From Alphaproteobacteria bacterium (lineage in GTDB: Bacteria > Pseudomonadota > Alphaproteobacteria > UBA828), in NCBI GenBank assembly GCA_965237415.1, contig CBDEFM010000002.1:1728001-1792000 (forward strand): a DNA stretch of 64,000 bases. The letters are read 5' to 3'. A program made the translations under genes and the position numbers. Numbering within the stretch: position 1 is the stretch's first letter; the number at the start of each line of letters is the position of its first letter. Below are positions 1,413 through 59,462 of this stretch, piece by piece. Under the pieces are notes generated by a model. It saw nothing but the letters and a program-made list of their open reading frames with translations, ran no database searches and was not told where the DNA came from.

Positions 1413-1573
1413 TTAGATCCTCTGCCCACACATAGGCGCAGTCTGGCCGTTTTCGGTCGCAATTCCGATAGTGCAGCGAACGCCGCGCGCCCACCCTTTC
1501 CCGAAGGGTGCGGCCGCGGGCAAACAACGATAGATTCCCAGCCATGGCAGCAGGTTCAGACGGCGGCGAAACC

Positions 1574-3109
1574 ATGACGAAGCGAGGCGGTCGCCGGGGC
1601 GGCGGGCGGGCGGCACGGCACGCGGAGCGGGTCGGCGGCAAGATCGAGCTTCTGCGTTACATCACACGCAACATTCCCTCGGTCGACCTCCTCAGCGATG
1701 AGGGGCTGGCGCTGATCGAGGAGAACGCGGAAACGATCCTCGAGGAGATCGGGATCGACTTCCGCGAGGATGCGGAGGCGCTCGAGCTCTTCAAGGATGC
1801 CGGCGCCGATATCGACGGTGAGCGGGTGCGCTTCCCGCGCGGGCTCGCGCGTCACCTGGTGTCGACCGCGCCTGCTTCCTTCACGCAGCTCGCACGCAAT
1901 CCCGAGCGATCGGTCGAGATGGGCGGCCGCAATCTCGTCTTCGCGCCGGTCTATGGCCCGCCCTTCATCTACGACATCGAGAAGGGGCGCCGCTACGCCC
2001 AGCTCGAAGACTTCGAGAACATCGTCAAGCTCGCCTACATGACGCCCTCGATGCACCACTCCGGCGGCACGGTGTGCGAGCCGGTCGACGTTCCGGTCAA
2101 CAAGCGCCATCTCGACATGGTCTACGCGCACATGCGCTATTCCGACAAGCCGTTCATGGGGTCGGTCACGCACCCCGAGCGCGCGGCGGATTCGGTCGAG
2201 ATGGCGAAGATCCTCTTCGGCGCAGACGTCGTCGATACCCAGACCGTGATGGTCAGCCTGATCAACGCCAACTCGCCGATGACCTTCGATGCCACCATGC
2301 TGGGTGCGCTCAAGGTCTATGCCCGTGCCAACCAGGGCAACCTCGTCACGCCGTTCATCCTGGCGGGCGCGATGGCGCCGGTCTCCCTTGCCGGCACGAT
2401 GGCGCAAACGCTGGCGGAGGCCCTGGCGGGCATGGCGCTCGTCCAGCTCTGCCGGCCGGGGGCGCCGGTCATCTTCGGCAGCTTCCTCAGCTCGATGTCG
2501 ATGCAGACCGGCGCACCGACCTTCGGCACGCCCGAGGCCACGCTCGCCATCTTCGGCCTCGCGGCGCTGGCCCGCCGGCTCGGCGTCCCGTTTCGCAGCG
2601 GCGGCTCGCTCACCGCATCGAAGTTGCCCGACGCGCAAGCGGCTTATGAAAGCGCCCAGACGCTATTGCCGACCGTACTGGCGGGCGCCAACTTCGTTCT
2701 CCATGGCGCCGGCTGGCTCGAAGGCGGACTGGCCAGCGGCTACGAGAAGTTCATCCTCGATGCGGACCAGATGGGCATGATGCAGGTCCTGGCGCGCGGC
2801 TACGACCTGTCCGCCAACGGCCAGGCGATGGACGCGATCAGAGAGGTCGGCCCGGGCAGCCACTATCTCGGCTGCAGCCATACGCAGGCGAATTTCGAGA
2901 CCGCCTTCTACCGCTCCGCTGTCGCCGACAATTCGAGCTACGAGCAGTGGCAGGCCGACGGCTCCAAGGATGCGACCGCGCGGGCACACGATATCTACAA
3001 GTCGATGCTGGCCAGCTACGAGGCGCCGCCCATCGACCCTGGGGTGGATGAGGCGCTCAAGGAGTTCATCGCCAAGAAGAAAGCGTCGATGCCCGACGCC
3101 TTCGCCTAG
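1574..3109 (+). CDS. mttB: Trimethylamine methyltransferase (MttB) family protein, non-pyrrolysine type
   Basis: Typical N-terminus (RRGGGRAAR), CEPVDVPVNKRHLD, GAPTFGTPE, GWLEGGL; no in-frame TAG. Confidence 0.88.
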   Translation: MTKRGGRRGGGRAARHAERVGGKIELLRYITRNIPSVDLLSDEGLALIEENAETILEEIGIDFREDAEALELFKDAGADIDGERVRFPRGLARHLVSTAPASFTQLARNPERSVEMGGRNLVFAPVYGPPFIYDIEKGRRYAQLEDFENIVKLAYMTPSMHHSGGTVCEPVDVPVNKRHLDMVYAHMRYSDKPFMGSVTHPERAADSVEMAKILFGADVVDTQTVMVSLINANSPMTFDATMLGALKVYARANQGNLVTPFILAGAMAPVSLAGTMAQTLAEALAGMALVQLCRPGAPVIFGSFLSSMSMQTGAPTFGTPEATLAIFGLAALARRLGVPFRSGGSLTASKLPDAQAAYESAQTLLPTVLAGANFVLHGAGWLEGGLASGYEKFILDADQMGMMQVLARGYDLSANGQAMDAIREVGPGSHYLGCSHTQANFETAFYRSAVADNSSYEQWQADGSKDATARAHDIYKSMLASYEAPPIDPGVDEALKEFIAKKKASMPDAFA

Positions 3110-3127: not shown

Positions 3128-3498
3128 CCGGACCATGGTGCGGTGCAGGATGCGGGGCTTCTGCGCCAGGATCGCGCCATGCGTCGATTATTTTCCCGCG
3201 CGCGTATCCGCGCATCTTGCTCCCGCGCACGTAGCCGATCAGTTTGCCGCGCGCGTATCCGCGCGACGCAGTGCACGAACGAGCGAGCCGAGCCGGGCGC
3301 GATAGTCCGCAATTCTCACCAGGGTCGCGCCCCGCGCCTGGGGGGCGCGTCCCTTGATTCCGCGCGCACGACCCTGCGGGCGTGCGCGACATCCCACTCA
3401 TCCCACTTAATCCCGCTTAATCCCGGACAAGAATTTGTGTCTCGCCCGACGTGGAGGGGCAGAACCGGGCCGCGACCGTGGCGGGGGGATCGGCGTCA
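3128..3498 (+). repeat. Dispersed cassette copy A (internally deleted): dyad promoter, short ORF remnant, AATCCC array, conserved tail
   Basis: CCGGACCATGGTGCGG 3128-3143; ATG 3179 region closely resembles the reverse complement of about 35430-35540; ATCCCACTC-ATCCCACTTA-ATCCCGCTTA-ATCCCGG 3391-3426; tail alignable to copies B and D. Confidence 0.85.
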
Positions 3499-12133: not shown

Positions 12134-12855
12134 CGGGCTGGCGGCCGAACGGGGACCAGATTCGCGCGGGCGCACTTGCCGGTGCCGACCTCTCGCGCTT
12201 CGACCTGCAGGGCTTTCACTTCCGCCGGGCCGACCTGCGCGGGGCGAGCTTCGCCGGAAGCATCCTTCGCGAGGTCGATCTCTGGTCCGCCGACCTCACC
12301 GGCGCCGACCTCACCGGCGCGAACCTGCGCCTGGCGACGTTCAAGGGCGCAAACCTGCAAGGCGCGCGGCTCGCCGGCGCGGACCTCTGGAGCGCCGATC
12401 TCAAGGTCGCCGACCTGGGCGGCGCCATTCTCTCGGAGTGCAATCTCGCTCAAGCCGAGCTCGCCGGCGCGAAGTGCCGGGGGGCGGACTTCAGCTGCGC
12501 TGAGCTCTACTGCGCCGACCTTCGCCTCGCCGACCTGGAGGACGCCAATCTCGGCCGCGCGGACGGGCGCCTCGCGAAGCTGGAGGAGGCGGTGCTGATC
12601 GGCGCCAACCTGCGCGATGCGAACTTCTCGGGCGCGAGCTTCAAGCGCGCGCGGCTGGCCACGGCCGACCTGGGAGGCGCCAACCTGCGCGAAGCGAATT
12701 TTCGCGAGGCCGACCTGATTCGTGCCGACTTTCGCGGGGCAGAGGTCGCCGACGCCTTCTTCGGCCAAGCCAATCTCGACGGCACCGTGATGCCGGACGG
12801 CACCATCGAATCGACCACCCTGCGTCACTGGGCGCCGCCCGAGGAAGACGCGTAG
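12130..12855 (+). CDS. Pentapeptide repeat protein
   Basis: Long run of A(D/N)LxG-type pentapeptides, ending in MPDG; ATGA overlap with upstream gene. Confidence 0.9.
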   Translation: MTGWRPNGDQIRAGALAGADLSRFDLQGFHFRRADLRGASFAGSILREVDLWSADLTGADLTGANLRLATFKGANLQGARLAGADLWSADLKVADLGGAILSECNLAQAELAGAKCRGADFSCAELYCADLRLADLEDANLGRADGRLAKLEEAVLIGANLRDANFSGASFKRARLATADLGGANLREANFREADLIRADFRGAEVADAFFGQANLDGTVMPDGTIESTTLRHWAPPEEDA

Positions 12856-12866
12856 GCGTCCGAGCC

Positions 12867-12917
12867 CCGCACCATGGTGCGGTGGAGGGCGCAGGCTCGG
12901 CGCGCCAGCATCGCGTC
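12867..12917 (+). promoter_or_regulatory. Putative activator-dependent leaderless promoter: perfect 16-bp palindrome at -51..-36, CAGCAT at -12..-7
   Basis: CCGCACCATGGTGCGG 12867-12882; CAGCAT 12906-12911; ATG 12918; same spacing in three other copies. Confidence 0.65.
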
Positions 12918-13645
12918 ATGCAAAACGAAACCCAAAAGACAACGACAGCCGCGACGTTCGGGCGTTCCTCGATCGCGCGGCTGCCGCCGGAGCTTCGCGA
13001 GGCCGTCGATGCGGCCATCGCAGACGGCGCCACCATCGACGAAATCGCGGATCTCATCCGGGGCGAGGGCGGCGCGTGCTCGCGCTCGGCCGTCGGCCGC
13101 TACACCAAGAACGTCCGCGACCTGATTCGCCAACAGCAGGAGGCCGACCGCGCCAACGAGGCGTGGGTGCGCGCGCTCGGCGAGCGCGCCGAGGGTCGGG
13201 CCGGGCTCATCCTGATCGAGACCCTGCGGACTTTGACGCTCTCCACCCTGGCCGAACTCAGCAAGCGCGAGACGCCGCCGACGCCGGAAGAGCTTGGCCG
13301 TCTCTCGCTGGTCCTCAAGCGCATCGAGGGCACGGACAAGCTCCGCCTCCAGCGGGAGCAGGCGGCGGCGAAGGCAGCCAGGGCCGCGCCCGGCGCGGGG
13401 CAGGCACCGGGGCAGGCACCGCCCAGGAAGGGCCTCTCGCCCGAGGCCGTCGCCGCCATCCGCGAGGTCGTCGAGGGGAGGCCCCGCCCGCCTGGGCGGG
13501 CCGTCTCATCGGCGCCGGTCGACCCGTGGAATCCTTCGGAATCCCACTTAATCCCACTTAAACCCGGCGAATCCCGCACAGGAATTGAGTTTGGCCCGAG
13601 TGGGATGGCGGAGCCGGACAGCGACAGTCGCGAAATTGCGGGCTA
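12867..13645 (+). repeat. Dispersed cassette copy B (carries intact DUF3486-like ORF)
   Basis: Dyad leader; five roughly 10-bp AATCCC-type units 13529-13578; tail to 13645 alignable to copies A and D. Confidence 0.85.
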
Positions 13646-13697
13646 CGCGCCCACGTCGACGATGGCCACCACTGGGCCGCCGCCCTGCGGGCCCTGA
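12918..13697 (+). CDS. DUF3486 / phage Mu gp27-like protein (small-terminase-like), orphan
   Basis: [29 protein letters not shown]...SRSAVGRY...LIETLRTL...[12 protein letters not shown] resembles the Mu gp27 family; 3' end overlaps the convergent gene by 55 bp. Confidence 0.72.
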
Positions 13698-14737
13698 TGC
13701 ATCGCATCGACCGAGACGAACACGGCGGGATCGCCGATCGCCGCCGCCGCGACACCGCCCACGGCGCCCTTGGAATGGCGGTGATGGTGGACGTCGGAAT
13801 CGTCCAGCATGATCTGGCGGCGCCCGCGCAAGCGCGCGGTGCGGTCGGCCTCGCACTTGATGAAGCAGTTGACGAGCTTGTCGCCGAGATCGGCGGCGCG
13901 CGGGCGCTCCGGCAGGTTGAGGCCGGCGTTACGGATGCCGTCGTAGATGCCGTCGATGTCGAGGGCGTCCTGCATCACGCCGTGGCCGATGCGGAAGCGC
14001 CCGCCGGCCCCCGGCGCGTTGCCGAAGAGGACGATCTGCCCGCGGTCGAGCTCGACGCCAGAGGAGCAGGAGGCGACCGAGGAGTAGAGATCAAGATTGC
14101 GGCAGATTTCGTGGGCCGCCGGCATGCCGACTTCGCCGAGCGCGACGGCAATGCCGAGGCCGGTGGTGCCGTTGGAGACCCCCATCGATTCATGGACCTC
14201 GCAGGCCACGGTCTCGCCCCGCCCGTGCGCGTCCTGCACCGTGTCGATGGTGAGCAGCGGCGTCTTGGTCTGCACGTAGTGGACATTCGCAGGGTCGCCG
14301 ATGCCCGCATCGGCCATCGCCGCGCGCACGCTGTCGGCGATCTTCTCCACCATCGCCGGCCGGCCGATGTCCTCGGGCAGGATTGGCGCGCTCATGGCGG
14401 TCCCCATGGCGAGGCGCAGCGTGTCGTCGGGCCCGCTCTCATCGTTGCGGGCGAAGACGGTCGCATGGGGGGTGAGCACGCCATCGCAGCCGCCCGACCA
14501 GACCATGGGGATTTCGCCGACCTCGACTTCGCTGCGCGTGCCGTGCTTGAGGAGGACGCCGCGGAAGGCGCTGTCCGACAGGATGCGGGTGAAGTCGTTG
14601 ACCCCGCCGTTGCCCTCCGTCTTACCGATGACGGCGACGACGGAATCCGCCGCCATGCGGCCCGACGCGATGAGTTCCTCCAGGCCCGAGGCATCCGCGA
14701 CCGATTTGATCTCGATCTTCGCAACGTCGATCGCCAT
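13643..14737 (-). CDS. Ring-opening amidohydrolase of the AtzD/barbiturase family, barbiturase-like
   Basis: [45 protein letters not shown]. Confidence 0.88.
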
Positions 14738-17638: not shown

Positions 17639-17943
17639 CCGGACCATGGTGCGATGTGCAGTGCCAGGCTCCTGCGTCAGGCTCACGCCATGGAGCGCCA
17701 AACTGGGTTGGTCGCGGTGGGCACGTTGAGCGAGCGGGCGGGAAACGATCTCGCGCTCAACACCCTGCGGGCGTGCGCGACCCGGGTCCGGGCCGCGGCC
17801 GCCAGCAACAACTGTCTGCCGGGCCATCCAGTGGGAGGCTTCGCCGTGAACGCTCCGTCGGGCCGCCGGCACCGGTCCGGCGGAACCCCACTCATCCCGC
17901 CTATCCCACTTAATCCCGCTGAATCCCGCCTCAAATTAACTCA
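17639..17943 (+). repeat. Dispersed cassette copy C (short/degenerate)
   Basis: CCGGACCATGGTGCGA 17639-17654, CAGGCT 17678-17683, ATG 17690; 20-bp ACCCTGCGGGCGTGCGCGAC shared exactly with copy A; ATCCC array about 17883-17930. Confidence 0.82.
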
Positions 17944-22471: not shown

Positions 22472-24211
22472 CTATTCCGCAGCCTCCGGCAGCGGCGCGT
22501 CCTCGCCGTAGCGCGCAACCCAGGACGGCTCGTAGCCGTAGTCTCGCGCCGCAGCCTCGGCGCTGACATAGCCCTCCAGCACGTCCTCGACCACTGCACG
22601 CGGGTCGCGCTCGCGCGGCTCGCCGTAGCCGCCTCCGCCCGGCGCCTTGACCGAGACCCGCTCGCCGGGGCGGATTGGCACATTCGAGTACTTGCTGGTG
22701 GAGATCTTGCCAAACGCCGCGCCGACCGTGGTCCAGCGGTTGGCGCCTTCCTCCCGGTAGAGGGTGGCGCCCGGAATGCCGGAACCGCCCCCGTAGAGGC
22801 CCCAGGCGACCTTTTTGTGCTTGTTGGTCATCTGGCTGATCGTCACCTCGCCGGTGCAGAGCATGGTCTTGGAGATGCTCAAGCCCCCTCGATGCGCTCC
22901 GGCGCCGCCCGAATCCGGACGCAGCGCATATTCCTCGACGATCCACGGGAACCGCGTCTCGAACACCTCGGTCGGCGTGTTGGCACAATTGCCGTTGATC
23001 GAATCCGTGGCGTCGTTGCCATCGGCAAAGCTGCGCCCGCCATAGCCGACATAGGAGAAATCGAAGGCGCCGATGGGCTCGTCGTTGCGCTTGTCGTAGC
23101 CGCCGAAGACAAAGCAGCCGTGGGTGGTGCCTTCCGAGGCCATTACGCGGTCGGGCGCCGCCGGCGCCATGGCGCCCAGGATGATGGCGACGATGAGCGG
23201 ATGGGTCTCGGTATTGCCGCCCACCTCGGAGCCGGGATAGTTCACGTTCATCACGGAGCCGGCCGGTGCAATCACCCGGATCGGGCGGAAGCACCCCGAG
23301 TTCTTCGGAATTGTCTGGTCGGTGAGGTGCAGCATGGCGTTGTAGGAGGCCGACCAGGCGACGCCGAGGGTGGCGTTGATCGGCCCCAGTGCCTGCGCCG
23401 AGGAGCCGGTGTAGTCGATCACGACTTCGTCGCCCTGGACGTGAACGGCGCAGCGGATGGTGAACTCCTTGTCCTCAATGCCGTCATCCTCCAGCCCGTC
23501 CTCGAAGCGGTAGCAGCCGTCGGGGAAGGCCCCGATCTCGGCCCGCATGCGAGATTCGGAATAGTCCATGAGGTCGATGACGGTGCGGCGGAAGGTCTCG
23601 CGGCCGTACTTGCCGATCAGCTCCTTCATCCGCGCCTCGCCGAGATCGACGGCGGAGATCAGCGCCCGGATGTCGCCATAGTTCTGGCGCGGGGTGCGGA
23701 CGTTGGCGAGCATCAGCTTCCAGACCTCGACCACGTCCTCGCCGCGCTTCTTGATCTTGACCGGGGGCACGCGCAGCCCCTCGTGGAAGATCTCGGTGGC
23801 CTCGCCGGGGAAGCCGCCGGGCACCATTCCGCCGGTCTCGACGAAGTGGCCGATGGCGACGGCGAAGCCCATTGGCTCGCCGTCGACGAAGATCGCCTTG
23901 AACATAGTGTGCTCGGGCGTATGCAGGCCGCCCCGGTAAGGATCGTTGTGGACGATCACGTCGCCCTCGTCGATCTCGGAGAGCGAAATCTCCTTCACCA
24001 TCGAGCGCACGAGCAGGGGCACGCCGCCGATCTGCGCGGGGCAGAATTCGGCTACGGCGATCATCTCGCCTTCGGTGTTGGCCAGCGCGCAGGTGAAATC
24101 TTCGGCTTCGGAGAAGATCGTGGAATAGGCGGTCTTCTGCACGTTGACGCCCATCTCGCGGCAAATCGCGACCATGGCGGATTCGATGATGTTCATCGTG
24201 ACCATGTCCAT
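22472..24211 (-). CDS. Hydantoinase B/oxoprolinase family protein
   Basis: NDPYRGGLHTPE, GGMVPGG, EGLRVPPVK, SGGAGAHRGG, PGGGGYG. Confidence 0.9.
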   Translation of the reverse strand: MDMVTMNIIESAMVAICREMGVNVQKTAYSTIFSEAEDFTCALANTEGEMIAVAEFCPAQIGGVPLLVRSMVKEISLSEIDEGDVIVHNDPYRGGLHTPEHTMFKAIFVDGEPMGFAVAIGHFVETGGMVPGGFPGEATEIFHEGLRVPPVKIKKRGEDVVEVWKLMLANVRTPRQNYGDIRALISAVDLGEARMKELIGKYGRETFRRTVIDLMDYSESRMRAEIGAFPDGCYRFEDGLEDDGIEDKEFTIRCAVHVQGDEVVIDYTGSSAQALGPINATLGVAWSASYNAMLHLTDQTIPKNSGCFRPIRVIAPAGSVMNVNYPGSEVGGNTETHPLIVAIILGAMAPAAPDRVMASEGTTHGCFVFGGYDKRNDEPIGAFDFSYVGYGGRSFADGNDATDSINGNCANTPTEVFETRFPWIVEEYALRPDSGGAGAHRGGLSISKTMLCTGEVTISQMTNKHKKVAWGLYGGGSGIPGATLYREEGANRWTTVGAAFGKISTSKYSNVPIRPGERVSVKAPGGGGYGEPRERDPRAVVEDVLEGYVSAEAAARDYGYEPSWVARYGEDAPLPEAAE

Positions 24212-24253
24212 GACGGGTTCCTTTCCCTCCCGCGCGTGGGCCTGGATCGGGGC

Positions 24254-26293
24254 TCAGGCCTGGCGCGCGATCTCGCCGATCAGGATGTTACCGTAACGAT
24301 CGATCCATACCGGCTGGCCGGGGCGGACGACGGTGACCGAGGCGGGCTCCTCGATCAGCGCAGGGCCCTCGAAGCTGTGCCCCTCGCGGAGCGCGGCACG
24401 ATCATGGATCGGGGTCTCCACCCAGCCCTCCTCAAAGAGCACCCGCCGCCTGCTCGCCGGCGACGGCTCGCCCTCGGCCGGGCCGACTTCGGCAAGCCGC
24501 GGCTTATCGGTCACCGAGACGGCCGTGACCTTGACCGATGTCATCTCGATTTTCTCACCCGGAATATCGAAATTGAAGCGATCCCGGTGCGCCCGATGGA
24601 AGGCCTCCCATAGCCCCGGCAACGTGGTCTCGTCGAAGCGGTCGAAGGCGATGGGCACGTCGAGCTCGTGGTTCTGCCCGAGATAGCGCATCTCCAACGA
24701 CCGGAGGATCTCGATGTTCTCGGTGTAGCCCTGTTGCTCGAGCGCGGCGATGCCTTCGCGGATCAGGTCCGAGAGCACGCGATTGGCATGGTCCTCGTCG
24801 AAGGCGGCCGAGGTCATCTGCGCTGTCCGCTCCAGGTCGACCCGCGCGTCGGTCATCAGAAAACCGAAGGCCGAGAACTGGCCAGGATGGTTGGGCACGA
24901 TGCCGCTCGGAATGTTGGCGTGGACCATGAGGTCAGCGACGTGGACCGGCCCCGCGCCGCCGAATGCCAGAAGCGTGAAGTCGCGCGGGTCGAGGCCACG
25001 CTCGGTCAGCACCGAGCGCAGCGCGCCGATCATGTTGTTGTTGGCGATCTGCACCATGGCGAGCGCGGTCTCTTCGACCGGCTTGTCGATGGCGCTTGCG
25101 ACCACAGCGATCGCCGACTCTGCGGCATCCGGGTCGAGCGCCATGGCACCGCCGAGAAAGTTCGCAGGATTGATGCGGCCGAGTGCGAGGTTGGCGTCGG
25201 TCGCGGTCGCCTGGGTGCCGCCGAGGCCGTAGCAGGCGGGCCCCGGGTTGGCGCCGGCGCTTTCCGGCCCCATGCGCAGCATGCCGCCCTTGTCGATCCA
25301 GGCGAGCGAGCCGCCGCCCGCGCCCATGGTGCGGATATCGATCATGGGGATCTGGATCGGCAGGCCGAACTCGATCTCAAAGCTCGTGGTAAAGCTCTCC
25401 TGGCCGCCCACCACGGTGGAAACGTCGGTGGACGTGCCGCCCATGTCGAGGGTGACCAGGTGATCGACGCCGACGCTGCGGGCGATCTGCTTGGCGCCCA
25501 CAACGCCCCCGGTGGGGCCGGAGAGGGTCATCTGAATGGGGTGGCGGGCGGCCTCCTCCAGAGTCATCTCGCCGCCGTTGGACTTGATCGCGGCGACCTG
25601 ACGGGTGATGCCCTTCTCGTCGAGCCGCGACCGCATGGTGCCGAGATGGCGGCCCACGACGGGCTTGATGTAGGCGTCGGTGATGGTGGTGGAGGAGCGT
25701 TCGAACTCCTTCCACTTGGGCAACACCTCGTAGGAAATGCTGACCGGCAGGCCCGGACATTCCTCGGCGAAGATCGCTTGAGCGGCGCGTTCATGGTCGG
25801 GCGTCACGAAGGAGAAGAGGAAGTTGATGGCGACCGCCTCGACACGGCCATGGGCCTTGATCTCGCGCGCGATGGCGCGCACCCGGTCGGTATCCAGCGC
25901 ACGATAGACCTCGCCCCTGGCCAGGATCCGCTCATCCACTTCGTAGCAGTGGCGCCGCTTCACCAGCGGCTTGGCCTTGACCCAGGTGATGTCGTAGTGG
26001 CTCTTGCGCTTGCCCCGCTGGATGAAGGGCACGTCGCGAAACCCGGTCGTGGTCAGGTAGGCGACCGTGGCGCCCTTGCGCTCGAGGATCGCGTTGGTGG
26101 CGATTGTCGTGCCGAAGCGGATGTTGCCGATGGCGCCCACATCGCCGGAGCGATCGAGGCCGTCGACGATGCCGTCCATCGGGTCGGCCGGTGTGGAAAG
26201 GGTTTTCCAGACGTCGACTGCCTGGGTTTCAGGGTCGTAGCGGACGAAATCCGTGAAGGTTCCGCCCACATCGATCCCGACCAGATCGCTCAT
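24254..26293 (-). CDS. Hydantoinase A/oxoprolinase family protein (ATP-binding)
   Basis: GIDVGGTFTD, SGPTGG, DMGGTSTD, GAGGGS, GPESAGANPGPACY, FGGAGP. Confidence 0.9.
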   Translation of the reverse strand: MSDLVGIDVGGTFTDFVRYDPETQAVDVWKTLSTPADPMDGIVDGLDRSGDVGAIGNIRFGTTIATNAILERKGATVAYLTTTGFRDVPFIQRGKRKSHYDITWVKAKPLVKRRHCYEVDERILARGEVYRALDTDRVRAIAREIKAHGRVEAVAINFLFSFVTPDHERAAQAIFAEECPGLPVSISYEVLPKWKEFERSSTTITDAYIKPVVGRHLGTMRSRLDEKGITRQVAAIKSNGGEMTLEEAARHPIQMTLSGPTGGVVGAKQIARSVGVDHLVTLDMGGTSTDVSTVVGGQESFTTSFEIEFGLPIQIPMIDIRTMGAGGGSLAWIDKGGMLRMGPESAGANPGPACYGLGGTQATATDANLALGRINPANFLGGAMALDPDAAESAIAVVASAIDKPVEETALAMVQIANNNMIGALRSVLTERGLDPRDFTLLAFGGAGPVHVADLMVHANIPSGIVPNHPGQFSAFGFLMTDARVDLERTAQMTSAAFDEDHANRVLSDLIREGIAALEQQGYTENIEILRSLEMRYLGQNHELDVPIAFDRFDETTLPGLWEAFHRAHRDRFNFDIPGEKIEMTSVKVTAVSVTDKPRLAEVGPAEGEPSPASRRRVLFEEGWVETPIHDRAALREGHSFEGPALIEEPASVTVVRPGQPVWIDRYGNILIGEIARQA

Positions 26294-26714: not shown

Positions 26715-29700
26715 TCACTCCGCCGCTTCGTCCGCGCCGGGCTTGTAGCCGTAGTCCCGCGCCGCCTCGGCCTCAGTGAGATAACCGCGGCTGAGGTCGG
26801 CGGCGACGCGCTGTCGGGAGCGTTCGCGCGGATCGCCCAGGCCGCCGCCGCCGGGGGTCCGCACCTGCACCGTGTCGCCCGGCGCCAGATGATAGCCCTC
26901 GCCCTTCGAGAGATGCGGCGGCTCCTCCACTTGGTTGCCGCGGCGGACCTCGATGCGGTTGACCGCGCCGGGCAGACCGCCCGCGAGGCCATGCGGGCCG
27001 GTGCGCCCGTGGTCCATCATGAACGACGCCTTCGCCTCGCCCCGTAGCAGGCGGACGCGGTAGCTCACCCCGAAGCCGCCCCGGTGCCGCCCGGCGCCGC
27101 CCGAGCCCTCCCTCAGCGCATATTCCTCGAACAGGATCGGGTAGTGCTGTTCCAGGATCTCCGCCGGCTGGGTCTTGGAGATGCCGACGGACGAGCAGCC
27201 GTTGGTGAGGCCGTCGTCTTCCCACCAGCCGCCGTAGCCGCCGCCGGAGAAGATGTACATCACGTAGCGGCGTCCCTCCTCCGGGTCGTCGCCGCCGAGG
27301 CTGAAATTGCCGCTGGTCCCGGCGGGGGCCGCGAACATGCGCTCCGGCATGGCCTGGCCCAAAGCGCCGAACACCGCCTCCATGATCCGTTGCGCCGTCT
27401 CGGCCGCGCAGCCCGAGACCGGCCTTGGGTACTCGGCATAGAGGAAGGTGTCGTGGGGCGGCGTCACGGTGATCGGGCGGAAGCAACCAGCGTTGATCGG
27501 CACGTCCGGGAAGATGTGCTTGATCGCGCAATAGACCGAGGCCAGCGTCGTCGCCCAGACCGAGTTGACCGGCCCGCGGCAGGGTGGGCTGGAGCCCTCG
27601 AAGTCGACGGAGAGGTTGCTGCCCTCCACCGTGACCCGCACACGAACCTCGAGGGGCTTATCGTCGACACCGTCGGAATCCATGTAGCTGGAGAAGACGT
27701 ACGCTCCGTCGGGAATGGACGCGATGTGAGCGCGCATCCGGCGCTCGGAACGCTCCTTGAGCACCTCGATGGCGGCGTTGACTGTCGCCTCGCCGTGCTT
27801 GTCGAGGAGTTGGGTCAGCCGCCGCTCGCCGACCGAGAGCGCTCCGATCTGGGCGCGGATGTCGCCGATGCGTTCCTCCGGCACCCGGATATTGGCGAGC
27901 ACGATCTGCAAGATGTCATCGTCGAGCACGCCGCGCCGGTGCAGCTTGACCGGCGGCAGCCTGAGCCCCTCCTGCTGGATCTCGGTCGCCTGGGAGGGGA
28001 AGCCGCCCGGCACCATGCCGCCGGTATCGGGCCAGTGGCCGGTGTTTGAGAGATAGGCCCAGAGCCGACCCTTGTAGAAGAAGGGCCGCACCATCTTCAC
28101 ATCCATCAGGTGGGTGCCGCCAAAATAGGGGTCGTTGACCAGCACGATGTCGCCGGGCTCCAGGTCGTCCCGCGCCTCGATCACCGCCTGTGTGGTGGAT
28201 TGCATGACACCGAGGAAGATCGGCAGACCGAGCTCGCCTTGCGCGATGATCTGGCCCGTGTCGGGCGCATAAATTCCGTTGGAGCGGTCGTAGGCCTCCG
28301 AGATCACCGGCGAGAACGAGGTGCGCTGATGCACCAGGTCCATCTCGCTCGCGACCTGCTCGAGGCCGCTCTCGATCACCGCAAGGGTGACCGGGTCGAG
28401 ATCGCGCTCGCCACCCTCTCCCGCCTCTTCGGCAGCCCGCGGCACAGTCAGCACGAGGTTGCCGAGGGCGTCGGCACGGGCCTCGGAGCCCGGCTCCACC
28501 AGGATCGTGGTGTCGAGCTGCTGGATGACGGCGGGGCCTGCGATCGTCGCATCGCCGGGCAATGCCTCGCGCCGGTAGATCGGCGTCTCCGCCCAGACGC
28601 CCTCGAAATAGACCGGCCGCGTCTCGATCAGAGCCGCTTCCAGCGTCGCCCCGCCGTCCTCTGGCGCGAGCGTGAGGTCGAGCGGCGGGCGGATACCGCG
28701 CACGGTGGTCCGCAGGTTGACCAGGATGGGCTGCATCTCCGGCAGCACGATGTCGAACCGCTCGCGGTAGAGCGCCGCGAAGGCATCGCGGACGGTTATC
28801 GCCCTGAAGCCCTCGTCGCCCACCGGCACGCGGAACACATGACTCTGGCCGCGGTAGAAGAGGTCCGCCTCGTGCTCGACCTCCACCCTATCGACCGTGA
28901 CTCCCTCTTCTGCGAGCAGCGCCCGGCCCTCCGCCGCCTGGTCCGCCAGGATGCTGTCGGCCGCCCCCGCGTCCACGTCCTCCAGCGGCTGATGCAGGGT
29001 GCGGACGAAGTCGTGGCGCACGTCCGCGAGCACGCAGCCGAGTGCCGACGTGATGCCGGGGAAGCGCGGCACCAAGACGTGAGGCACGCCGAGCTCGCGG
29101 GCGATGGCAGTGGCGTGCATCGGCCCCGCGCCGCCGAAGGCGAAGAGGGCGAAGTCGCGGGGGTCGTGCCCCTTGTCCACCGAGACGAGCCGCGCCGCGC
29201 CCGCCATCTGATGGTCCACCACCTTGAGGATCGCGGCGGCGGCCTCCGCCTCGTCGAGGCCCAGCGGCGCGCCGATCCGTTCGCGGACGATCCGGCGCAC
29301 ATCGTCGATATCAGGCGGGCTGTCGAGGCCGCCAATGGCGCGTGCATCGATGCGGCCCAGCAGCAGGTTGGCATCGGTCACCGTGGGCTCGCGCCCGCCC
29401 TTGCCGTAGCAAATCGGACCCGGCGCCGCGCCGGCACTCTCGGGCCCGACGCGCAGGATGCCGCCTTCGTCGACCCGTGCGATGCTGCCGCCGCCGGCGC
29501 CGATGGTCTGGATGTCCACCATGGGCACGCGGAGCGGCATGCCGTAGGCGATGTCCTTCTCCGTCGTCGTGGCCGGCACCCCACCCCGCACGATGGCGAT
29601 ATCGAAGCTGGTGCCGCCCATGTCGCAGCTGATGAGGTTGGGGAAGCCGGCGGTGGCGCCCAAACGCGCGGCGGCGATGACGCCCGCGGCCGGCCCCGAC

Positions 29701-30482
29701 ATGACCGTCTGCACCGCCTTCTCGCCCGCGATGCCGGCGGTCATCATGCCGCCGTTGCCCTGCATCACCAGCAGCTCGGACTCGACCGCGCCTGCCTTGA
29801 GCCGGGCCGCGATGCGGTCGAGATAGCGGGTCATGATGGGCTGGATGTAGCCGTTGAGCGCGGCGGTGCTGCCGCGCTCGAACTCGCGCACCTCGCGCAG
29901 GATGTCGGAGCCCAGCGTGATCGGGATTTCAGGCCACACTTCGCGGGCGATGTCGCCGACGCGGCGCTCGTGGTCGGGATTGAGATAGGCGTGGATGAAG
30001 TGGATGACGAGCGCTTCGGCGCCAGCCGCGCGCGCCGCCTGGACCGCCGCCCTCACCTCCTCCTCGTCGAGCGCTGTCACCACCGCGCCCGAGGCGTCGA
30101 TCCGTTCCGTTACCTCGAAGCGTCTCTCGCGCGGCACGATGGGCTCGAAGCTGCCGAACATGCCCCACGGGTTGGGCCGTGTGCGCCGGCCGAGCTCCAG
30201 CGTATCGCGGAAGCCCTGGGTGGTGATGAGCGCGCAGCGCACGCCCTTGCGCTCCAGCACGGCGTTGGTGCCGACCGTGGTGCCGTGGACGACCGTCTCG
30301 AATCCATCCGCCGCCTCGCCGAGAACGGCGAGGCCCGCCATGAACCCGTCCGACTGATCCGCAGGCGTCGACGGCACCTTGGCGATGCGCATGGCGCCGG
30401 AGGCTTGATCCACCAGCAGCAGGTCGGTGAAGGTGCCGCCGACATCGACTCCGAGCCGGCCACGCGCGCGGGGCTCGCTCAT
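26715..30482 (-). CDS. Fused hydantoinase A/B, ATP-dependent 5-oxoprolinase-like protein (about 1255 aa)
   Basis: GVDVGGTFTD...DMGGTSFD...then NDPYFGGTHLMD, GGMVPGG, PGGGG in one frame; start overlaps upstream stop. Confidence 0.9.
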   Translation of the reverse strand: MSEPRARGRLGVDVGGTFTDLLLVDQASGAMRIAKVPSTPADQSDGFMAGLAVLGEAADGFETVVHGTTVGTNAVLERKGVRCALITTQGFRDTLELGRRTRPNPWGMFGSFEPIVPRERRFEVTERIDASGAVVTALDEEEVRAAVQAARAAGAEALVIHFIHAYLNPDHERRVGDIAREVWPEIPITLGSDILREVREFERGSTAALNGYIQPIMTRYLDRIAARLKAGAVESELLVMQGNGGMMTAGIAGEKAVQTVMSGPAAGVIAAARLGATAGFPNLISCDMGGTSFDIAIVRGGVPATTTEKDIAYGMPLRVPMVDIQTIGAGGGSIARVDEGGILRVGPESAGAAPGPICYGKGGREPTVTDANLLLGRIDARAIGGLDSPPDIDDVRRIVRERIGAPLGLDEAEAAAAILKVVDHQMAGAARLVSVDKGHDPRDFALFAFGGAGPMHATAIARELGVPHVLVPRFPGITSALGCVLADVRHDFVRTLHQPLEDVDAGAADSILADQAAEGRALLAEEGVTVDRVEVEHEADLFYRGQSHVFRVPVGDEGFRAITVRDAFAALYRERFDIVLPEMQPILVNLRTTVRGIRPPLDLTLAPEDGGATLEAALIETRPVYFEGVWAETPIYRREALPGDATIAGPAVIQQLDTTILVEPGSEARADALGNLVLTVPRAAEEAGEGGERDLDPVTLAVIESGLEQVASEMDLVHQRTSFSPVISEAYDRSNGIYAPDTGQIIAQGELGLPIFLGVMQSTTQAVIEARDDLEPGDIVLVNDPYFGGTHLMDVKMVRPFFYKGRLWAYLSNTGHWPDTGGMVPGGFPSQATEIQQEGLRLPPVKLHRRGVLDDDILQIVLANIRVPEERIGDIRAQIGALSVGERRLTQLLDKHGEATVNAAIEVLKERSERRMRAHIASIPDGAYVFSSYMDSDGVDDKPLEVRVRVTVEGSNLSVDFEGSSPPCRGPVNSVWATTLASVYCAIKHIFPDVPINAGCFRPITVTPPHDTFLYAEYPRPVSGCAAETAQRIMEAVFGALGQAMPERMFAAPAGTSGNFSLGGDDPEEGRRYVMYIFSGGGYGGWWEDDGLTNGCSSVGISKTQPAEILEQHYPILFEEYALREGSGGAGRHRGGFGVSYRVRLLRGEAKASFMMDHGRTGPHGLAGGLPGAVNRIEVRRGNQVEEPPHLSKGEGYHLAPGDTVQVRTPGGGGLGDPRERSRQRVAADLSRGYLTEAEAARDYGYKPGADEAAE

Positions 30483-31435
30483 GGGCTGCCGTCTGCGCCG
30501 GCATCGGGCGCGGGCAACCCCAGGCCCTCCAGCGCGTCGCGCATCAGCTCCAACGCCATTCGCAGGAGGCGGGCGGAGGCCTCCGCGGTCATGAAGGCTG
30601 CGTGGGGCGTCAGCGTCGCGTTCTCCAACGCCGCCAGGGGATGGTCCCCGTCGATCGGCTCGTCGGCGAAGACATCGAGACCCGCTGCCCGAATCGTGCC
30701 GCCCTTCAGCGCCTCGACCAGGGCCGGCTCGTCGATGATTGCGCCGCGCGCGGTGTTGATCAGCATCGCGCCCCGGCGCATCAGGGCGAGGCGGCGCGCG
30801 TCGATGATGCCCCTGGTCTCGTCGTTGAGGCCGAGATGGAGCGACACCACATTGGCCTCGCCGAGCAGTGCGTCGAGGGTCTCGGCCGGGGTACAGGGGA
30901 GGTCGGACGGCACGCCGCTCCGGTTCCAGGCAATGACGTTCATGCCGATCCCGTTGCCGAGGCGCACCATCTCGCGGCCGACGCCGCCGGTGCCGACCAC
31001 CCCGAGGGTCTTGCCCGCGAACTCCACGCCATCGAGCGTGCGCCACGAGCCGGCGCGCAGCGCGCGGTCCATCCGCGCGGTCTGGCGGCCGCAGTCGAAC
31101 ATCAGCGCGAGCGCGTGCTCGGCAACCGTGACGTCGCCATAGCCCTTGATGGTGCGCACCTCGATGCCGAGCCGCTCCGCCGCCGCCACGTCGATGTAGC
31201 TCGACGCGCCGGTGCCCATGAAAACGATCACCTTGAGGGCGCGGCAGGCGGCAAGCACCTCCTCCGGCATGTAGGTGTGGTCGTTGATGACCCCGACCGC
31301 ATCGCCGACGTAGGCCGCCGCGTCGTCGCCCGGCACGTCGTCGACGGTCATGGCGAGGTCGGGAACGATCGCTCGGAGCTCGTCGTCGTAAAGCTCGGCC
31401 AGAAATGACGGACAGTCGAAGAAGATCGCGCGCAC
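30479..31435 (-). CDS. D-isomer-specific 2-hydroxyacid dehydrogenase family protein
   Basis: VAEHAL, GVVGTGGVG, INTARG, AGLDVF, TPHAA. Confidence 0.9.
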   Translation of the reverse strand: MRAIFFDCPSFLAELYDDELRAIVPDLAMTVDDVPGDDAAAYVGDAVGVINDHTYMPEEVLAACRALKVIVFMGTGASSYIDVAAAERLGIEVRTIKGYGDVTVAEHALALMFDCGRQTARMDRALRAGSWRTLDGVEFAGKTLGVVGTGGVGREMVRLGNGIGMNVIAWNRSGVPSDLPCTPAETLDALLGEANVVSLHLGLNDETRGIIDARRLALMRRGAMLINTARGAIIDEPALVEALKGGTIRAAGLDVFADEPIDGDHPLAALENATLTPHAAFMTAEASARLLRMALELMRDALEGLGLPAPDAGADGSP

Positions 31436-34229: not shown

Positions 34230-34492
34230 CTCTAACCCGCACGTCTCGCCACGGTCGCGGCCTGGCTCCCCGTCCCACCTCGGGCAGAATTCAATCTTGA
34301 GGCGGGATTCGGTGGGATTAAGTGGGATAAGTGGGATTCCGTGAGACAAGGTCGCCCGTGCCTGAGTCGCGCAAGCCCGAGTCGCCCGCGCCTGAAAGGT
34401 CGCGGGCGCGCCAGATAGGGTCGTGCACGCGGAATAGGATCCCGCAAGCACCCCCGTCGCGCTCGCCGCGGCCCGTTCGCTCTTGCGCTGTA

Positions 34493-34508
34493 TGGCACGG
34501 CAATTGCG
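34493..34508 (+). promoter_or_regulatory. Sigma-54 (-24/-12) consensus match
   Basis: TGGCACGGCAATTGCG with GG-N10-GC spacing. Confidence 0.45.
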
Positions 34509-34604
34509 CCGGCGGCGCGCAGACCGCGGCCGCGGTGAGACATCCGGGCCCCACGATGAGCCGGGCGCGCGTGTTCGGTTGCGGCGGATGCGGAGCCCCC
34601 GGCC

Positions 34605-35489
34605 TCACCCCGGTCCGCTCCATTCCGCAGGGCAGAAGGGAGGGTCGGTCGGCCAGAGTCGGCCTTCCGCCTCGCGCCGTCTCAGCTCGGCATCGCGCGC
34701 CCCGTGCGCGTCCCATGCATCGTCTGCTTGCGCGCGTGGACGCGCGACGCGCACCCCACGCGCGTCCGCATCCTGCGCCCCGTCGGCGGTAGGCGGATCG
34801 GGCGCCGGCTTCGGCAGGGTGACGGGAGAGTCCTCGGCAGAGGCCGCGGCCCACCCGGATGCCGGCGGTGGCGGCTCTGTGCGCCCAGGGAAGACGTGCC
34901 CCTCGAGAGCCCGGCGGACGGTCTCGACCCGTTCGGCATGCGTCATACTGGCCGCGCGCGCGGCCGGTCCGGCGTGCGCGGCGGCGGCATCGGCCGCCGC
35001 CTGCTCGCGCTCGATGCGGAGCTTGTCCGCGCTTTCGATACGGTAGAGCGCGAGGGCGAGGCGGGCGAGGTCCTCCGTCGGCACAGGCTCCGTGCGCTGG
35101 CTGAGCTCGGCCATCGTGCGGAGCGCCAGCGTTCGCAGGGTCTCGATCGCGATGAGGGCGCTAAGCCCCTCGGCGCGGGGGTCGCGCGTGCGCTCCCATT
35201 CCTCGGCAAAGCGAACGGTCTCGCGCTGCAGGCAGATCAGGCCGTCCATGCGCTCGGCCCAGCGGCCCTCGGCGGGTCGCGCCCGCGCGCAGCGTCGTGC
35301 GCGCGGGATCAAATCCGAACTCTCGCCGTCGCCCGCGCGGACGCGCGCCACGATCTCGTCCATGGTGGCGCCGCCCTCGATCGCTGCGGCGACGGCGTCC
35401 TGGATTGCGGCCGGCAGCGGCTCGTCCGGCGAGCGCTCGCTCTCGCACTGCGTCGCGCGGATACGCGCGCGGGAAGATGATCGACGCAT
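34605..35489 (-). CDS. DUF3486 / Mu gp27-like protein, diverged paralog of 12918..13697
   Basis: LPAAIQDAVAAAIEGGATMDEI...RAEG...IETLRTLAL...AELS...LARLALALYRIESADKLRIEREQAAA aligns with the copy B protein. Confidence 0.65.
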   Translation of the reverse strand: MRRSSSRARIRATQCESERSPDEPLPAAIQDAVAAAIEGGATMDEIVARVRAGDGESSDLIPRARRCARARPAEGRWAERMDGLICLQRETVRFAEEWERTRDPRAEGLSALIAIETLRTLALRTMAELSQRTEPVPTEDLARLALALYRIESADKLRIEREQAAADAAAAHAGPAARAASMTHAERVETVRRALEGHVFPGRTEPPPPASGWAAASAEDSPVTLPKPAPDPPTADGAQDADARGVRVARPRAQADDAWDAHGARDAELRRREAEGRLWPTDPPFCPAEWSGPG

Positions 35490-35720
35490 GGCGCAAGTCT
35501 GACGCGGACGCTGCGCACCATGCACCGCACCATGGTCCGGAGTCGCCCGCGCCCGAAGGGTCGGGGGCACAGCATAAAGAGTCGCGCGACCCTGAGTCGC
35601 ACGCGCCCGAAGGGTCGCGGGCGCGGAACCAAGGTCGTGCGCGCGGCGAATTAGGGTACGCGCGCGTCACATAATGTCGTGCGCGCGGAACGAGACAGTG
35701 GCAGGAATTCCGAGTTAGGG

Positions 35721-56657: not shown

Positions 56658-57851
56658 ATGACGCGGCATGTGGAGATCGCAGGGGGCGGCTTTACCGGGC
56701 TCACCATGGGCACGGCGCTCGCCCAGACCGGCTGGACGGCGCGGGTGCATGAGCGCTCGGCGGAGATCCGCGCCTTCGGCGCCGGCATCTGGATCTGGGA
56801 CAACGGCGTGCGCGTGCTCAAGGCGATCGGCGCGGCCGACGATGCGCTCGAAGGCTGCACGGAGGCGCCGACCTATATCAGCCGCGACGCCAACGGCCGC
56901 TTCATCGACGAGGTGCCGTTCGCGCCCATCACCAGCACCGATCGCTCGCGCATGTTCTGCATCACCCGCCAGCAGCTCCTGAGCGCGATTCTCGGCGCAG
57001 CGGAGCGGGCCGGGGTGGAGATCGTCACCGAATCGACCGCGACCGGCGCACGGCCCGACGGCACGCTGCTGATGGAAGATGGGCGGGAATGGCCGGCGGA
57101 CCTTGTCATCGCCGCCGACGGAATCAACTCCAAGGTGCGCGATTCGCTCGGCCTGCTGAAGAGCCGCAAGCCCCATGTCGATGGCGCCGTTCGAGTCCTG
57201 GTGCCGCACGAGCCGGGCTACGCCGACACCGAGGAGGGCCGCACCATCCGCGAGTGGTGGAACGGCTACCGGCGGGTGCTCTACACGCCGTGCACCAGCG
57301 AGGTCTTTTATCTCTGCTTCACCATGCTCGCGCGGGACGCAGAGGCGTCCCAGATTCCCCTGCCGCGGGCGATCTGGACCGAATCCTTCCCGCACCTCCA
57401 ATCGATGATCGGCCGGGTACCGGACGAAGGGCGCTACGACCGCTTCGAGACGATCAAGCTCAAGGCGTGGAGTAAGGGCCGGGTGGCGATCGTGGGCGAT
57501 TCGGCCCACGCCATGTCGCCGGGGCTCGGCCAGGGCTGCGGCACGGCAATCTCGAACGCCCTCTCGCTCTCCAACATGCTGCAGGAATCCGACGACATCG
57601 ACCGGGTGCTGAGGCGCTGGGAGACCCGCCAGCGGCCGATCTCCGAGCACACACAGCTCTGGTCGACGATCACCTGGCCGCTCACGCTCTGGCCTCACTG
57701 GGCGGCGCGGCTCTACTACAACCTGCCGATCTTGCACCCCTGGATGTTGAAACAACGGCGCAAGCCGTCCGAATTCTACGCCTACGGCACCGAGAAGCAG
57801 GTGCGCTGGATGCCGCCCCACATGCGCACCGAGGCCGAGGCAGCCGCGTAA
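56658..57851 (+). CDS. FAD-dependent monooxygenase, MHPCO (2-methyl-3-hydroxypyridine-5-carboxylate oxygenase)-like
   Basis: EIAGGGFTGL, RAFGAGI, ADGINSKVRDS, RVLYTPC, RYDRFETIKL, GDSAHAM; motif-level resemblance to MHPCO. Confidence 0.8.
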   Translation: MTRHVEIAGGGFTGLTMGTALAQTGWTARVHERSAEIRAFGAGIWIWDNGVRVLKAIGAADDALEGCTEAPTYISRDANGRFIDEVPFAPITSTDRSRMFCITRQQLLSAILGAAERAGVEIVTESTATGARPDGTLLMEDGREWPADLVIAADGINSKVRDSLGLLKSRKPHVDGAVRVLVPHEPGYADTEEGRTIREWWNGYRRVLYTPCTSEVFYLCFTMLARDAEASQIPLPRAIWTESFPHLQSMIGRVPDEGRYDRFETIKLKAWSKGRVAIVGDSAHAMSPGLGQGCGTAISNALSLSNMLQESDDIDRVLRRWETRQRPISEHTQLWSTITWPLTLWPHWAARLYYNLPILHPWMLKQRRKPSEFYAYGTEKQVRWMPPHMRTEAEAAA

Positions 57852-59118: not shown

Positions 59119-59154
59119 GACACGCCGCGCGCAGCCCAGCATGGTTGCGCCCAT

Positions 59155-59189
59155 TTGCGGCGTATAGCGCCACACGCTACAATATCTCC
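59155..59189 (+). promoter_or_regulatory. Sigma-70 leaderless promoter with internal operator for higBA
   Basis: TTGCGG-N17-TACAAT, 6 nt before GTG 59190; inverted repeat TAGCG-N5-CGCTA 59165-59179. Confidence 0.7.
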
Positions 59190-59462
59190 GTGAGGATCAG
59201 GCACAAGGGTCTGCGAGCGTTGCACCAACGGGACGATCCGTCTCGATTGCCCGCACACCTGGTCCCACGGCTTCGGCGCATCCTCTTCCGGCTGCAAGAG
59301 GCATCTCATCCGCGCAGCGCCGACGCGCCCGGCTTCCGGTTGCATCCTTTGACGGGCGACCGGGCAGGCCAATGGAGCGTGCGCGCCTCCGGCAACTGGC
59401 GCGTGGTGTTCCGCTTCGAGGATGGCGAGGCCGTTGATGTCGACCTGATCGATTACCACTGA
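59190..59462 (+). CDS. higB: HigB/RelE-family toxin
   Basis: RHKGL, PGFRLHPLTGD, WSVRASGNWRVVFRF, DYH. Confidence 0.9.
   Translation: MRIRHKGLRALHQRDDPSRLPAHLVPRLRRILFRLQEASHPRSADAPGFRLHPLTGDRAGQWSVRASGNWRVVFRFEDGEAVDVDLIDYH

Follow-up and report, generated by a model that had tools for sequence, protein, structure and literature searches.

What is the 54-nt block at positions 12867..12920 of this stretch of DNA, and what would it switch on? The stretch, hereafter the window, is 64,000 nt long and comes from an alphaproteobacterium (lineage UBA828; contig CBDEFM010000002.1). A preliminary description had pointed out that one arrangement, a 16-bp dyad followed at fixed distances by a hexamer and an ATG, occurs four times in the window, and had likened it to the phage Mu promoters activated by the Mor and C proteins. 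Using a repeat search and a four-way alignment, we found that the four sites are the left ends of four copies of one repeat family. The geometry had been described correctly, but this relationship had been overlooked. The sites are paralogous ends of one family, so their equal spacing is inherited and is not independent evidence. The block would be the 5' control module of a dispersed cassette of ~0.7 kb with one gene. Our preferred reading, held with some reserve, is that it is a promoter with a weak -35 region that depends on an activator or other regulator, gives a leaderless mRNA and has a Mor/C-like geometry.

Geometry and conservation of the putative promoter block

Direct reading and a pattern search of the window placed the dyad, CCGSACCATGGTGCGR, at 3128-3143, 12867-12882, 17639-17654 and 35525-35540 (the last on the minus strand). 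The search returned eight matches (four sites on both strands) against 0.52 expected, and none of 100 shuffles reached eight. Each ATG (3179, 12918, 17690 and, on the minus strand, 35489) lies 51 nt from the first base of its dyad. The hexamers at -12..-7 are CAGGAT (3167-3172), CAGCAT (12906-12911), CAGGCT (17678-17683) and CAGACT (35496-35501, minus). No GGAGG-like Shine-Dalgarno motif was found within 20 nt of the ATG at the window sites; the sole such motif, TGGAGG, is at -35..-30. The dyad, CAGNNT and ATG offsets and the lack of a Shine-Dalgarno sequence had all been reported in the preliminary description, and direct reading agrees with it on each. It is also right about the same hexamer-6 nt-start layout at higB, a comparator outside the element (59155..59192, plus strand), which reads TTGCGG (59155-59160), 17 nt, TACAAT (59178-59183), 6 nt and GTG at 59190. 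HigB (59145-59462) and HigA (59482-59796) were identified by Pfam, and the layout suggests that a higB start on this GTG would be leaderless.

In the second copy, the dyad is a perfect 16-bp palindrome, CCGCACCATGGTGCGG (12867..12882), which forms the left edge of the repeat and is a putative regulator site centred at -43.5 from the ATG. It is followed on the plus strand by a weak -35-like hexamer, TGGAGG (12883..12888; TGCACA, TGCAGG and similar in other copies), a 17-nt spacer (12889-12905) and the -10-like hexamer CAGCAT (12906..12911), 6 nt before the ATG.

To this we could add copies from other genomes. A genome scan identified 29 loci in 8 uncultured Alphaproteobacteria/Rhodospirillales assemblies (2-6 loci each), whose proteins are 62-92% identical. 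The set used for the promoter block comprises 35 copies from nine genomes: 28 of these loci, three second units and the four window copies, with the 31 copies outside the window coming from the 8 assemblies. The second units belong to a group of four short units that lack an open reading frame (ORF). In L019, L022, L023 and L029 these follow a cassette ~3.4 kb downstream, on the far side of an SDR gene and a glutamine-synthetase-like gene. They end on the right in ATCCC-type repeats and keep the dyad, 17 nt, CACGAT or CACAAT, 6 nt and ATG. The composite search pattern was written to fit variation already seen and admits only A at position 2 of the hexamer and only T at its position 6; the second unit of L029 fails it only because its dyad starts with CTGG, and CACGAT-6 nt-ATG is present there by eye.

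The distance from hexamer to start codon is 6 nt in 35/35 copies, and the start is always ATG. The dyad lies 23 nt from the hexamer in 25 copies and 24 nt in 10, so the spacer after the -35 position is 17 nt in 25/35 and 18 nt in 10/35, and the dyad centre, with the ATG as assumed +1, is at -43.5 in 25/35 and -44.5 in 10/35. The geometry had been called invariant, which holds within the window but not across the 35 copies. Further copies had been proposed as a check on the spacing; they uphold the 6 nt between hexamer and ATG throughout, but not the distance from dyad to hexamer, which differs by 1 nt in 10/35. A 1-nt insertion or deletion between the two indicates that the stretch is non-coding, and in 10/35 copies it is tolerated as a 17/18-nt spacer.

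Conservation was found to be uneven along the block. Mean pairwise divergence over the 35 copies is 0.061 for the dyad, 0.31 for the -35 hexamer, 0.35 for the spacer, 0.106 for the -10 hexamer, 0.35 for the discriminator and 0 for the ATG. Synonymous differences in the adjacent ORF give a pS of 0.12-0.42 and a median dS of 0.31 (325 pairs of 26 intact copies). Divergence of the dyad and hexamer is 3-6 times lower than that of the intervening bases or the synonymous sites; the variability between the two, remarked on earlier for the four window sites, extends to the whole set (0.31-0.35 versus 0.061 and 0.106). This pattern supports the view that the block behaves as a promoter under selection, with a dyad and a -10-like hexamer far more conserved than the -35 region, spacer and discriminator. 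Similarity between the flanks collapses upstream of ~-53.

The hexamer is CAGCAT in 28/35 copies, with A2 and T6 in all, both of which the search pattern demands. The seven exceptions are GAGCAT in L017 and six decayed or ORF-less copies (CAGGAT, CAGGCT, CAGACT, CACAAT and, twice, CACGAT), in which the changes are confined to positions 3-5. Sorted by ORF content, altered hexamers were counted in all 7 ORF-poor copies that fit the composite pattern, compared with 1/28 ORF-bearing copies. The suggestion that the promoter is kept intact where the ORF has decayed is thus half right, applying to its layout but not to the hexamer sequence of the ORF-poor copies. In a more distant lineage, 12 extra codons separate the conserved ATG from the MQNE that starts the window protein, and other copies with unrelated N-termini still keep hexamer-6 nt-ATG. 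This indicates that the ATG is tied to the hexamer and not to the protein N-terminus.

These features could be joined into one mechanism. CAGCAT, exactly 6 nt before the ATG, with a 17/18-nt spacer and a poor, variable -35 region, would make up a sigma-70-type promoter whose transcript would begin at the A of the ATG or directly beside it, giving a leaderless mRNA. The conserved imperfect 16-bp dyad, centred at -43.5 (or -44.5), would abut the -35 position, and a dimeric DNA-binding regulator would sit on it and touch RNA polymerase. Such a site of a dimeric regulator in contact with the polymerase is the most likely role of the dyad. We infer that transcription starts at the ATG, that a protein binds the dyad and that this protein activates the promoter. 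Leaderless mRNAs are described as common in Alphaproteobacteria, with 171 in S. meliloti, all with AUG (PMC3616915), and 375 in Caulobacter (PMC4117421). The ATG in all copies fits the AUG requirement of leaderless mRNAs. The block resembles such alphaproteobacterial mRNAs in its putative AUG start, the lack of a Shine-Dalgarno sequence and the -10-like hexamer ending 6 nt before the A. The activator-dependent leaderless promoter proposed in the preliminary description thus gains from the selection pattern, the constant 6 nt and the missing Shine-Dalgarno sequence, but the Mu-like activator suggested for it loses from a dyad that is unlike those of Mu Pm and Plys.

Several observations weigh against this reading. 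A sigma-70 consensus scan of 12700-13800 at E. coli-like thresholds returned 0 promoters and 0 terminators, and CAGCAT matches TATAAT at only 3/6 positions. The dyad is the exact left edge of the repeat, so its conservation could serve the spread or packaging of the element. The ORF-less copies retain the module with no obvious gene to express. Neither a Mor/C gene nor a Mu-like prophage was found in the window or in the 3-kb flanks of the 29 loci. Finally, the copies share descent and several loci have orthologues in other genomes, which leaves well under 35 independent observations.

The cassette gene and its phased right end

Copy 2 (12867-~13620, plus strand) is the intact form of the cassette. 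Its ORF (12918..13697, plus strand; conserved part to ~13577) encodes an orphan homologue of the Mu Gp27/DUF3486 small terminase. The protein matches Pfam Phage_Mu_Gp27 (PF11985) with an E value of 8.3e-24 (85.3 bits where the cut-off is 28, covering positions 1-171 of the 173 in the profile) and PHROG 426, 'terminase small subunit', with an E value of 3e-28. It is 27% identical to Mu gp27 (E 9e-8), and both contain the motif SRSxxxRY, whose conservation is at least 90% in a family alignment of 51 sequences. An AlphaFold (AF2) model (pLDDT 81.6) has a helix-turn-helix (HTH) at its N-terminus and long helices. This predicted fold fits the plan of small terminase subunits (TerS), described as an N-terminal HTH with a long helical hairpin (PMC9611059). 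Among BFVD folds the model is closest to a DUF3486 protein (E 1.6e-4). No PDB structure was matched by Foldseek at E <=0.001, with small terminases only at E 1.6-2.4, and significant fold matches were limited to DUF3486 proteins.

The protein is under purifying selection, as indicated by a dN/dS of 0.2-0.47 (median 0.42) over the 325 pairs of 26 intact copies. L004, L015 and L028 were dropped from this set as disrupted and L029 as partial, and window copies 1, 3 and 4 were left out. An ORF that is functional by this measure needs a promoter; in copies 1 and 2 it follows the stops of unrelated upstream genes by 12-20 nt. A word-indexed protein search found 789 relatives among 8000 candidates scored, of which the best 120 are 71-100% identical with lengths of 210-435 aa. 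At E <=0.001, an exhaustive search gave 725 cluster representatives, many of which are fragmentary. In window-type copies no stop codon of the unit closes the frame, which continues into the flank. The ORF of copy 2 lacks a stop within the element, and its frame enters the 3' end of a convergent atzD-like gene (13643-14737, minus strand), overlapping in antisense the last 55 nt of this AtzD/TrzD-type amidohydrolase gene (13643-13697). In the distant lineage, by contrast, the ORF ends in a conserved tail, …ESWTEIAPRVFRTSPTSILSLGPE*, instead of running into the flank.

In the Mu record, gp27 is the small terminase (gene D) in the C-activated Plys operon, with the large terminase and portal next, and Chromohalobacter phage YPCBV-1 has gp27, TerL and portal in the same order. 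No large terminase or portal stands beside the cassette gene at the 29 loci or the four window copies. We analyzed the 3 kb around the 29 loci by sending 64/131 composition-filtered flank ORFs to Pfam, leaving out Gp27 ORFs and overlapping or orthologous duplicates. The flanks contain differing housekeeping genes and sporadic unrelated insertion sequence (IS) or integrase genes. No large terminase, portal, capsid or replication gene, and no integrase beyond these sporadic ones, lies within 3 kb in 29/29 loci, and the cassette gene is an orphan at each. PADLOC and NCBIfam gave nothing relevant. Searching with tblastn, the copy 2 protein had no match in plasmids and 2 weak DUF3486 matches in phages, and a 185-aa relative (P0157) had no match in phages.

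The right end of every window copy is an array of ATCCC units. In copy 2 the array spans 13530..13576 (plus strand), with units at 13531, 13541, 13551, 13561 (degenerate) and 13571, which read GGGAT(T) on the opposite strand. It is followed by a tail (…GGAATTGAGTTTGGCCCGAGTGGGATGGCGGAGCCGG…; 13577..13622, plus strand; right boundary approximate) that is common to copies 1 and 4 and to loci L004, L012 and L014. Across 34 copies, 78/114 successive spacings of the units are exactly 10 bp and 97/114 are multiples of 10. All 7 phased GGGAT pairs of the window lie in the four copies.

A 10-bp-phased GGGAT(T) array of this kind would resemble the packaging end of Mu-like phages. Mu packages by the headful mechanism from its left end (PMC2837660). 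That end has GGAT, GGGAT and GGGAT at nt 44, 53 and 63, the only such triple in 36.7 kb, and 2/500 shuffles have one. The Mu packaging site (pac) is said to lie at ~nt 32-58, following Groenen and van de Putte in 1985 and later work, and the GGGAT stretch at nt 44-63 would correspond to this site. GGGAT occurs at 40, 60 and 70 in Vibrio phage 1.142.O and at 45, 65 and 75 in Pseudomonas phage JBD25, while Pasteurella phage AFS-2018a has GGGAA, GGGAT and GGGAA at 9, 29 and 49 as read by eye. Counting these, GGGA(T/A) at multiples of 10 bp was found at 4/12 Mu-like phage left ends (Mu, 1.142.O, JBD25 and AFS-2018a). JD18 and PM105 have a GGGA-rich cluster that lacks 10-bp phasing, and ZX4290, MuM16-2, YPCBV-1, martha 12B12, HS6 and CF5a have no phased GGGA(T/A) at their left ends; several of these 8 non-phased records are incomplete or begin elsewhere than at a Mu-type end. 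The combination of a Mu-type terS gene with a Mu-type pac-like site in the cassette is a lead, not a demonstration.

The cassette shares with the TerS genes of headful phages the N-terminal HTH, the long helical hairpin and PHROG 426. As in P22 and SPP1, where pac is described in or by terS (PMC9611059), helically phased repeats adjoin the gene. The cassette differs from phage terS loci in being ~0.7 kb and multi-copy (4 in the 64-kb window). Measured against phage satellites such as SaPI and PICMI as well as headful phages, it also differs in that no large terminase, portal, capsid, integrase or replication gene accompanies it. A satellite resembling a phage-inducible chromosomal island, with integrase, replication and regulation genes and a helper-induced life cycle, is not supported, given the single 0.7-kb ORF, the housekeeping flanks and the lack of any relevant PADLOC result. 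In the literature, no description of such cassettes was found under DUF3486 or gp27/Mu-like terminase; the DUF3486 text match was a Chromohalobacter phage, and the terminase matches were papers on unrelated phages.

Candidate regulators and rival explanations

If the dyad is a regulator site, which protein binds it? As a rough split, a Mor/C-type phage activator and the HTH protein of the cassette each receive about a fifth of our confidence, and the rest goes to some other host or phage factor.

The first candidate is a Mor/C-family activator from a Mu-like phage or prophage, in which case the cassettes would be silent until the middle or late phase of the phage. We consider this possible but improbable. 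Mor and C are each described as binding an imperfect dyad of 16 bp whose centre is at -43.5, and the promoters concerned have a -10 that can be recognised but a poor -35 (PMC4390567; PMC2582627; preprint 10.1101/2025.05.02.651988). The preliminary description had placed the Mor/C dyad there, as the first two of these sources bear out, and the geometric match holds if the ATG is taken as +1: the cassette would then have a 16-bp imperfect dyad at -43.5 (in 25/35), a recognisable -10 (CAGCAT in 28/35) and a poor -35 (divergence 0.31), as in the Mu promoters Pm, Plys, PI, PP and Pmom, where the dyad stands beside or overlaps the -35 position. The cassette gene is homologous to the late gene gp27 of the C-activated Plys operon, and the other end of the cassette resembles the Mu packaging end. 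These two further links to Mu make the activator step more attractive. However, the dyad, CCGSACCA/TGGTGCGG, has no aligned half-sites in the Mu Pm and Plys regions and is unrelated in sequence, its centre is at -44.5 in 10/35 copies, and many dimeric regulators use similar positions. A leaderless start would be expected for the cassette, whereas ribosome-binding sites are annotated in the Mu record, and the cassette promoter lies directly on the terminase gene, whereas gp27 is 1.85 kb into the Plys operon. No PF08765 (Mor/C) protein was detected among 70 window ORFs or the 64 flank ORFs of the 29 loci. With no Mor/C gene or Mu prophage found there, activation by a Mu protein remains conjectural. 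Searching with the C protein of Mu returned only 21 enterobacterial relatives and has no bearing on the cassette genomes.

The second candidate, with a similarly modest chance, is autoregulation. The HTH Gp27 homologue of the cassette would bind the dyad and set its own expression, as transposases do at IS-end promoters. The only gene of the unit encodes an HTH DNA-binding protein according to its family and model, the dyad is at the very edge of the unit adjoining the promoter, and both the dyad and the SRSxxxRY motif in the HTH are nearly invariant. But SRSxxxRY is common to phage gp27 proteins, whose likely target would be the phased GGGAT, and the dyad contains neither GGGAT nor ATCCC. A site upstream of the -35 is also more typical of activators, and the ORF-less copies would need the protein in trans.

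One extension of these ideas, which we regard as speculative and a little less probable than either candidate, is that the cassettes are helper-inducible terS-pac mini-cassettes that depend on Mu-like phages or a phage-derived particle, seeding chromosomal packaging or diverting the phage motor. The late activator of the helper would fire the dyad promoter, the orphan TerS would assemble on the phased GGGAT, and the large terminase of the helper would be recruited. Headful packaging would then begin at each cassette, and the ORF-less copies would be pac decoys served in trans. If so, flanking host genes would become high-frequency transduced DNA, or the phage would be sabotaged by the diversion of its packaging motor.

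A third possibility, about as unlikely as each of the two binders above, takes the dyad mainly as a cis-acting terminus that a recombinase, transposase or packaging enzyme would recognise, the element being mobile or packaged and its promoter-like spacing incidental. The dyad is the first conserved block of the repeat, internally deleted copies retain both ends (copies 1 and 3 in the window), and cassettes occupy many unrelated intergenic sites in both orientations. The ends, however, show no terminal inverted repeats, only GC-rich noise. There is no signal of target-site duplication, with a mean longest shared word of 5.68 compared with 5.68 in mismatched pairs, given an uncertain right boundary. 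No recurrent transposase or integrase was found in the 3-kb flanks of the 29 loci. Conservation of the hexamer and ATG 23-35 nt away, and the pattern of hexamer changes, would also be left unexplained. A miniature inverted-repeat transposable element (MITE) or an insertion sequence is not supported, on the same three grounds of absent terminal repeats, duplications and recurrent transposase. Promoter-bearing MITE-like repeats such as Correia elements, repetitive extragenic palindromes (REP) and bacterial interspersed mosaic elements (BIME) are nonetheless similar in being multi-copy and intergenic, in having deleted derivatives with both ends and in occurring in repeat mosaics. The cassette is unlike them in lacking terminal inverted repeats and target duplications and in that its full-length form encodes a selected non-transposase protein. 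Some loci are orthologous between assemblies, such as those with DUF3179 and MetK flanks, which indicates that copies can be old and stable.

That the layout has no function and is merely inherited similarity among young repeat copies is disfavoured and very improbable. The four window sites are indeed paralogues, but neighbouring non-coding and synonymous sites have diverged 3-6 times more than dyad, hexamer and ATG, and the layout persists in 8 other assemblies with proteins only 62-92% identical. Just as improbable is a hairpin in RNA or single-stranded DNA that would terminate or insulate the upstream gene or mark a site of processing. In its favour, copy 2 has a perfect palindrome with a folding energy of -12.9 kcal/mol (z -2.0), and copies 1 and 2 stand directly past stop codons, but this reading fails because only 1/4 window dyads folds better than shuffles (z +1.3, +1.5 and 0.0 for the other three), the commonest dyad form has a G·G mismatch, none of the 5 variable dyad positions has a compensating change at its partner, and there is neither a T-run nor a terminator call.

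If the regulated leaderless promoter holds, a packaging protein has become detached from its phage, has multiplied in units of 0.7 kb and has stayed under selection with a compact regulated promoter. The hosts would be uncultured, apparently sponge- and environment-associated Alphaproteobacteria, and the block would provide a concrete, testable leaderless promoter of the activator type in a lineage that lacks genetics. The phased GGGAT is a sequence-level candidate for recognition by the DUF3486 small terminase; TerS-DNA recognition is described as unresolved in PMC9611059. Chromosomal pac sites that direct gene transfer or defence against phages would be a further possibility.

Window copies and neighbouring features

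All four copies sit between unrelated housekeeping genes. Copy 1 (3128..3485, plus strand) is an ORF-less derivative of ~360 bp between the convergent stops of an mttB-family gene (3109) and a RACo gene (3496). Its parts are the dyad (3128-3143), TGCAGG (3144-3149), CAGGAT (3167-3172), ATG (3179) and ATCCC units (3391-3425). Copy 2 is flanked by genes for a pentapeptide protein and the AtzD/TrzD-type amidohydrolase. Copy 3 (17639..17934, plus strand), an ORF-less derivative of ~300 bp, lies between gltX (minus) and comEC (plus), with its dyad at 17639-17654, TGTGCA at 17655-17660, CAGGCT at 17678-17683, ATG at 17690 and ATCCC units at 17893-17928. Copy 4 (34297..35540, minus strand; ~1.24 kb), between HlyD-type and Fe-ADH genes, has a degraded Gp27-like ORF (35489-34605; Pfam PF11985, E 1.3e-6) that holds a REP-like insertion. 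Its dyad is at 35525-35540, CAGACT at 35496-35501, ATG at 35487-35489 and the ATCCC units at 34303-34337.

The GC-rich REP-like repeat (…CCGCGCGCACGACCCTGCGGGCGTGCGCGAC…) was found at 3354-3390, 17747-17781, 35276-35312 (minus), 34364-34410 and 35541-35710, that is, inside all three decayed window copies and clustered upstream of copy 4. It may have disrupted the ORFs of the decayed copies. In L001-L003 and L027, too, the motif is found ahead of the dyad. Directly adjoining the right end of copy 3, upstream of comEC, is a 33-nt inverted repeat pair (17934-17966/18089-18121; 122 nt between the arms, which are 82% complementary) that looks like a separate small MITE-like insertion. In the other genomes, a repeat module (…TTAATCATTTCCCTCAACGGCGGGCGCTCGCTCCGCTCGCTTGCCTACGCGCC…) flanks the cassettes in L001, L003, L005-L007, L010, L011, L015, L017, L019, L022-L024 and L027-L029. 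Such modules recur on either side, indicating that cassettes are often embedded in mosaics of intergenic repeats. L001 and L028 (OZ253557.1) are ~10 kb apart in opposite orientation, each downstream of a SlipAM-family gene, which suggests an inverted segmental duplication including a cassette.

Rfam, run on the whole window, found nothing at the elements and only PYLIS_3, the pyrrolysine insertion element of mttB, at 2609-2711 (48.7 bits). This lies inside the MttB-family ORF (1508-3109), which reads through with no in-frame stop under table 11. Two tandem paralogous FAD-monooxygenase genes (56658-57851 and 57925-59118) share a 300-nt repeat of 89% identity; the second, split into ORFs 57925-58527 and 58543-59118, has probably become a pseudogene through a frameshift. 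Two paralogous hydantoinase/oxoprolinase A+B sets adjoin each other (22472-26293 and 26715-31046) with an offset of ~4.2 kb, and the second was called as one fused frame of 1443 aa.

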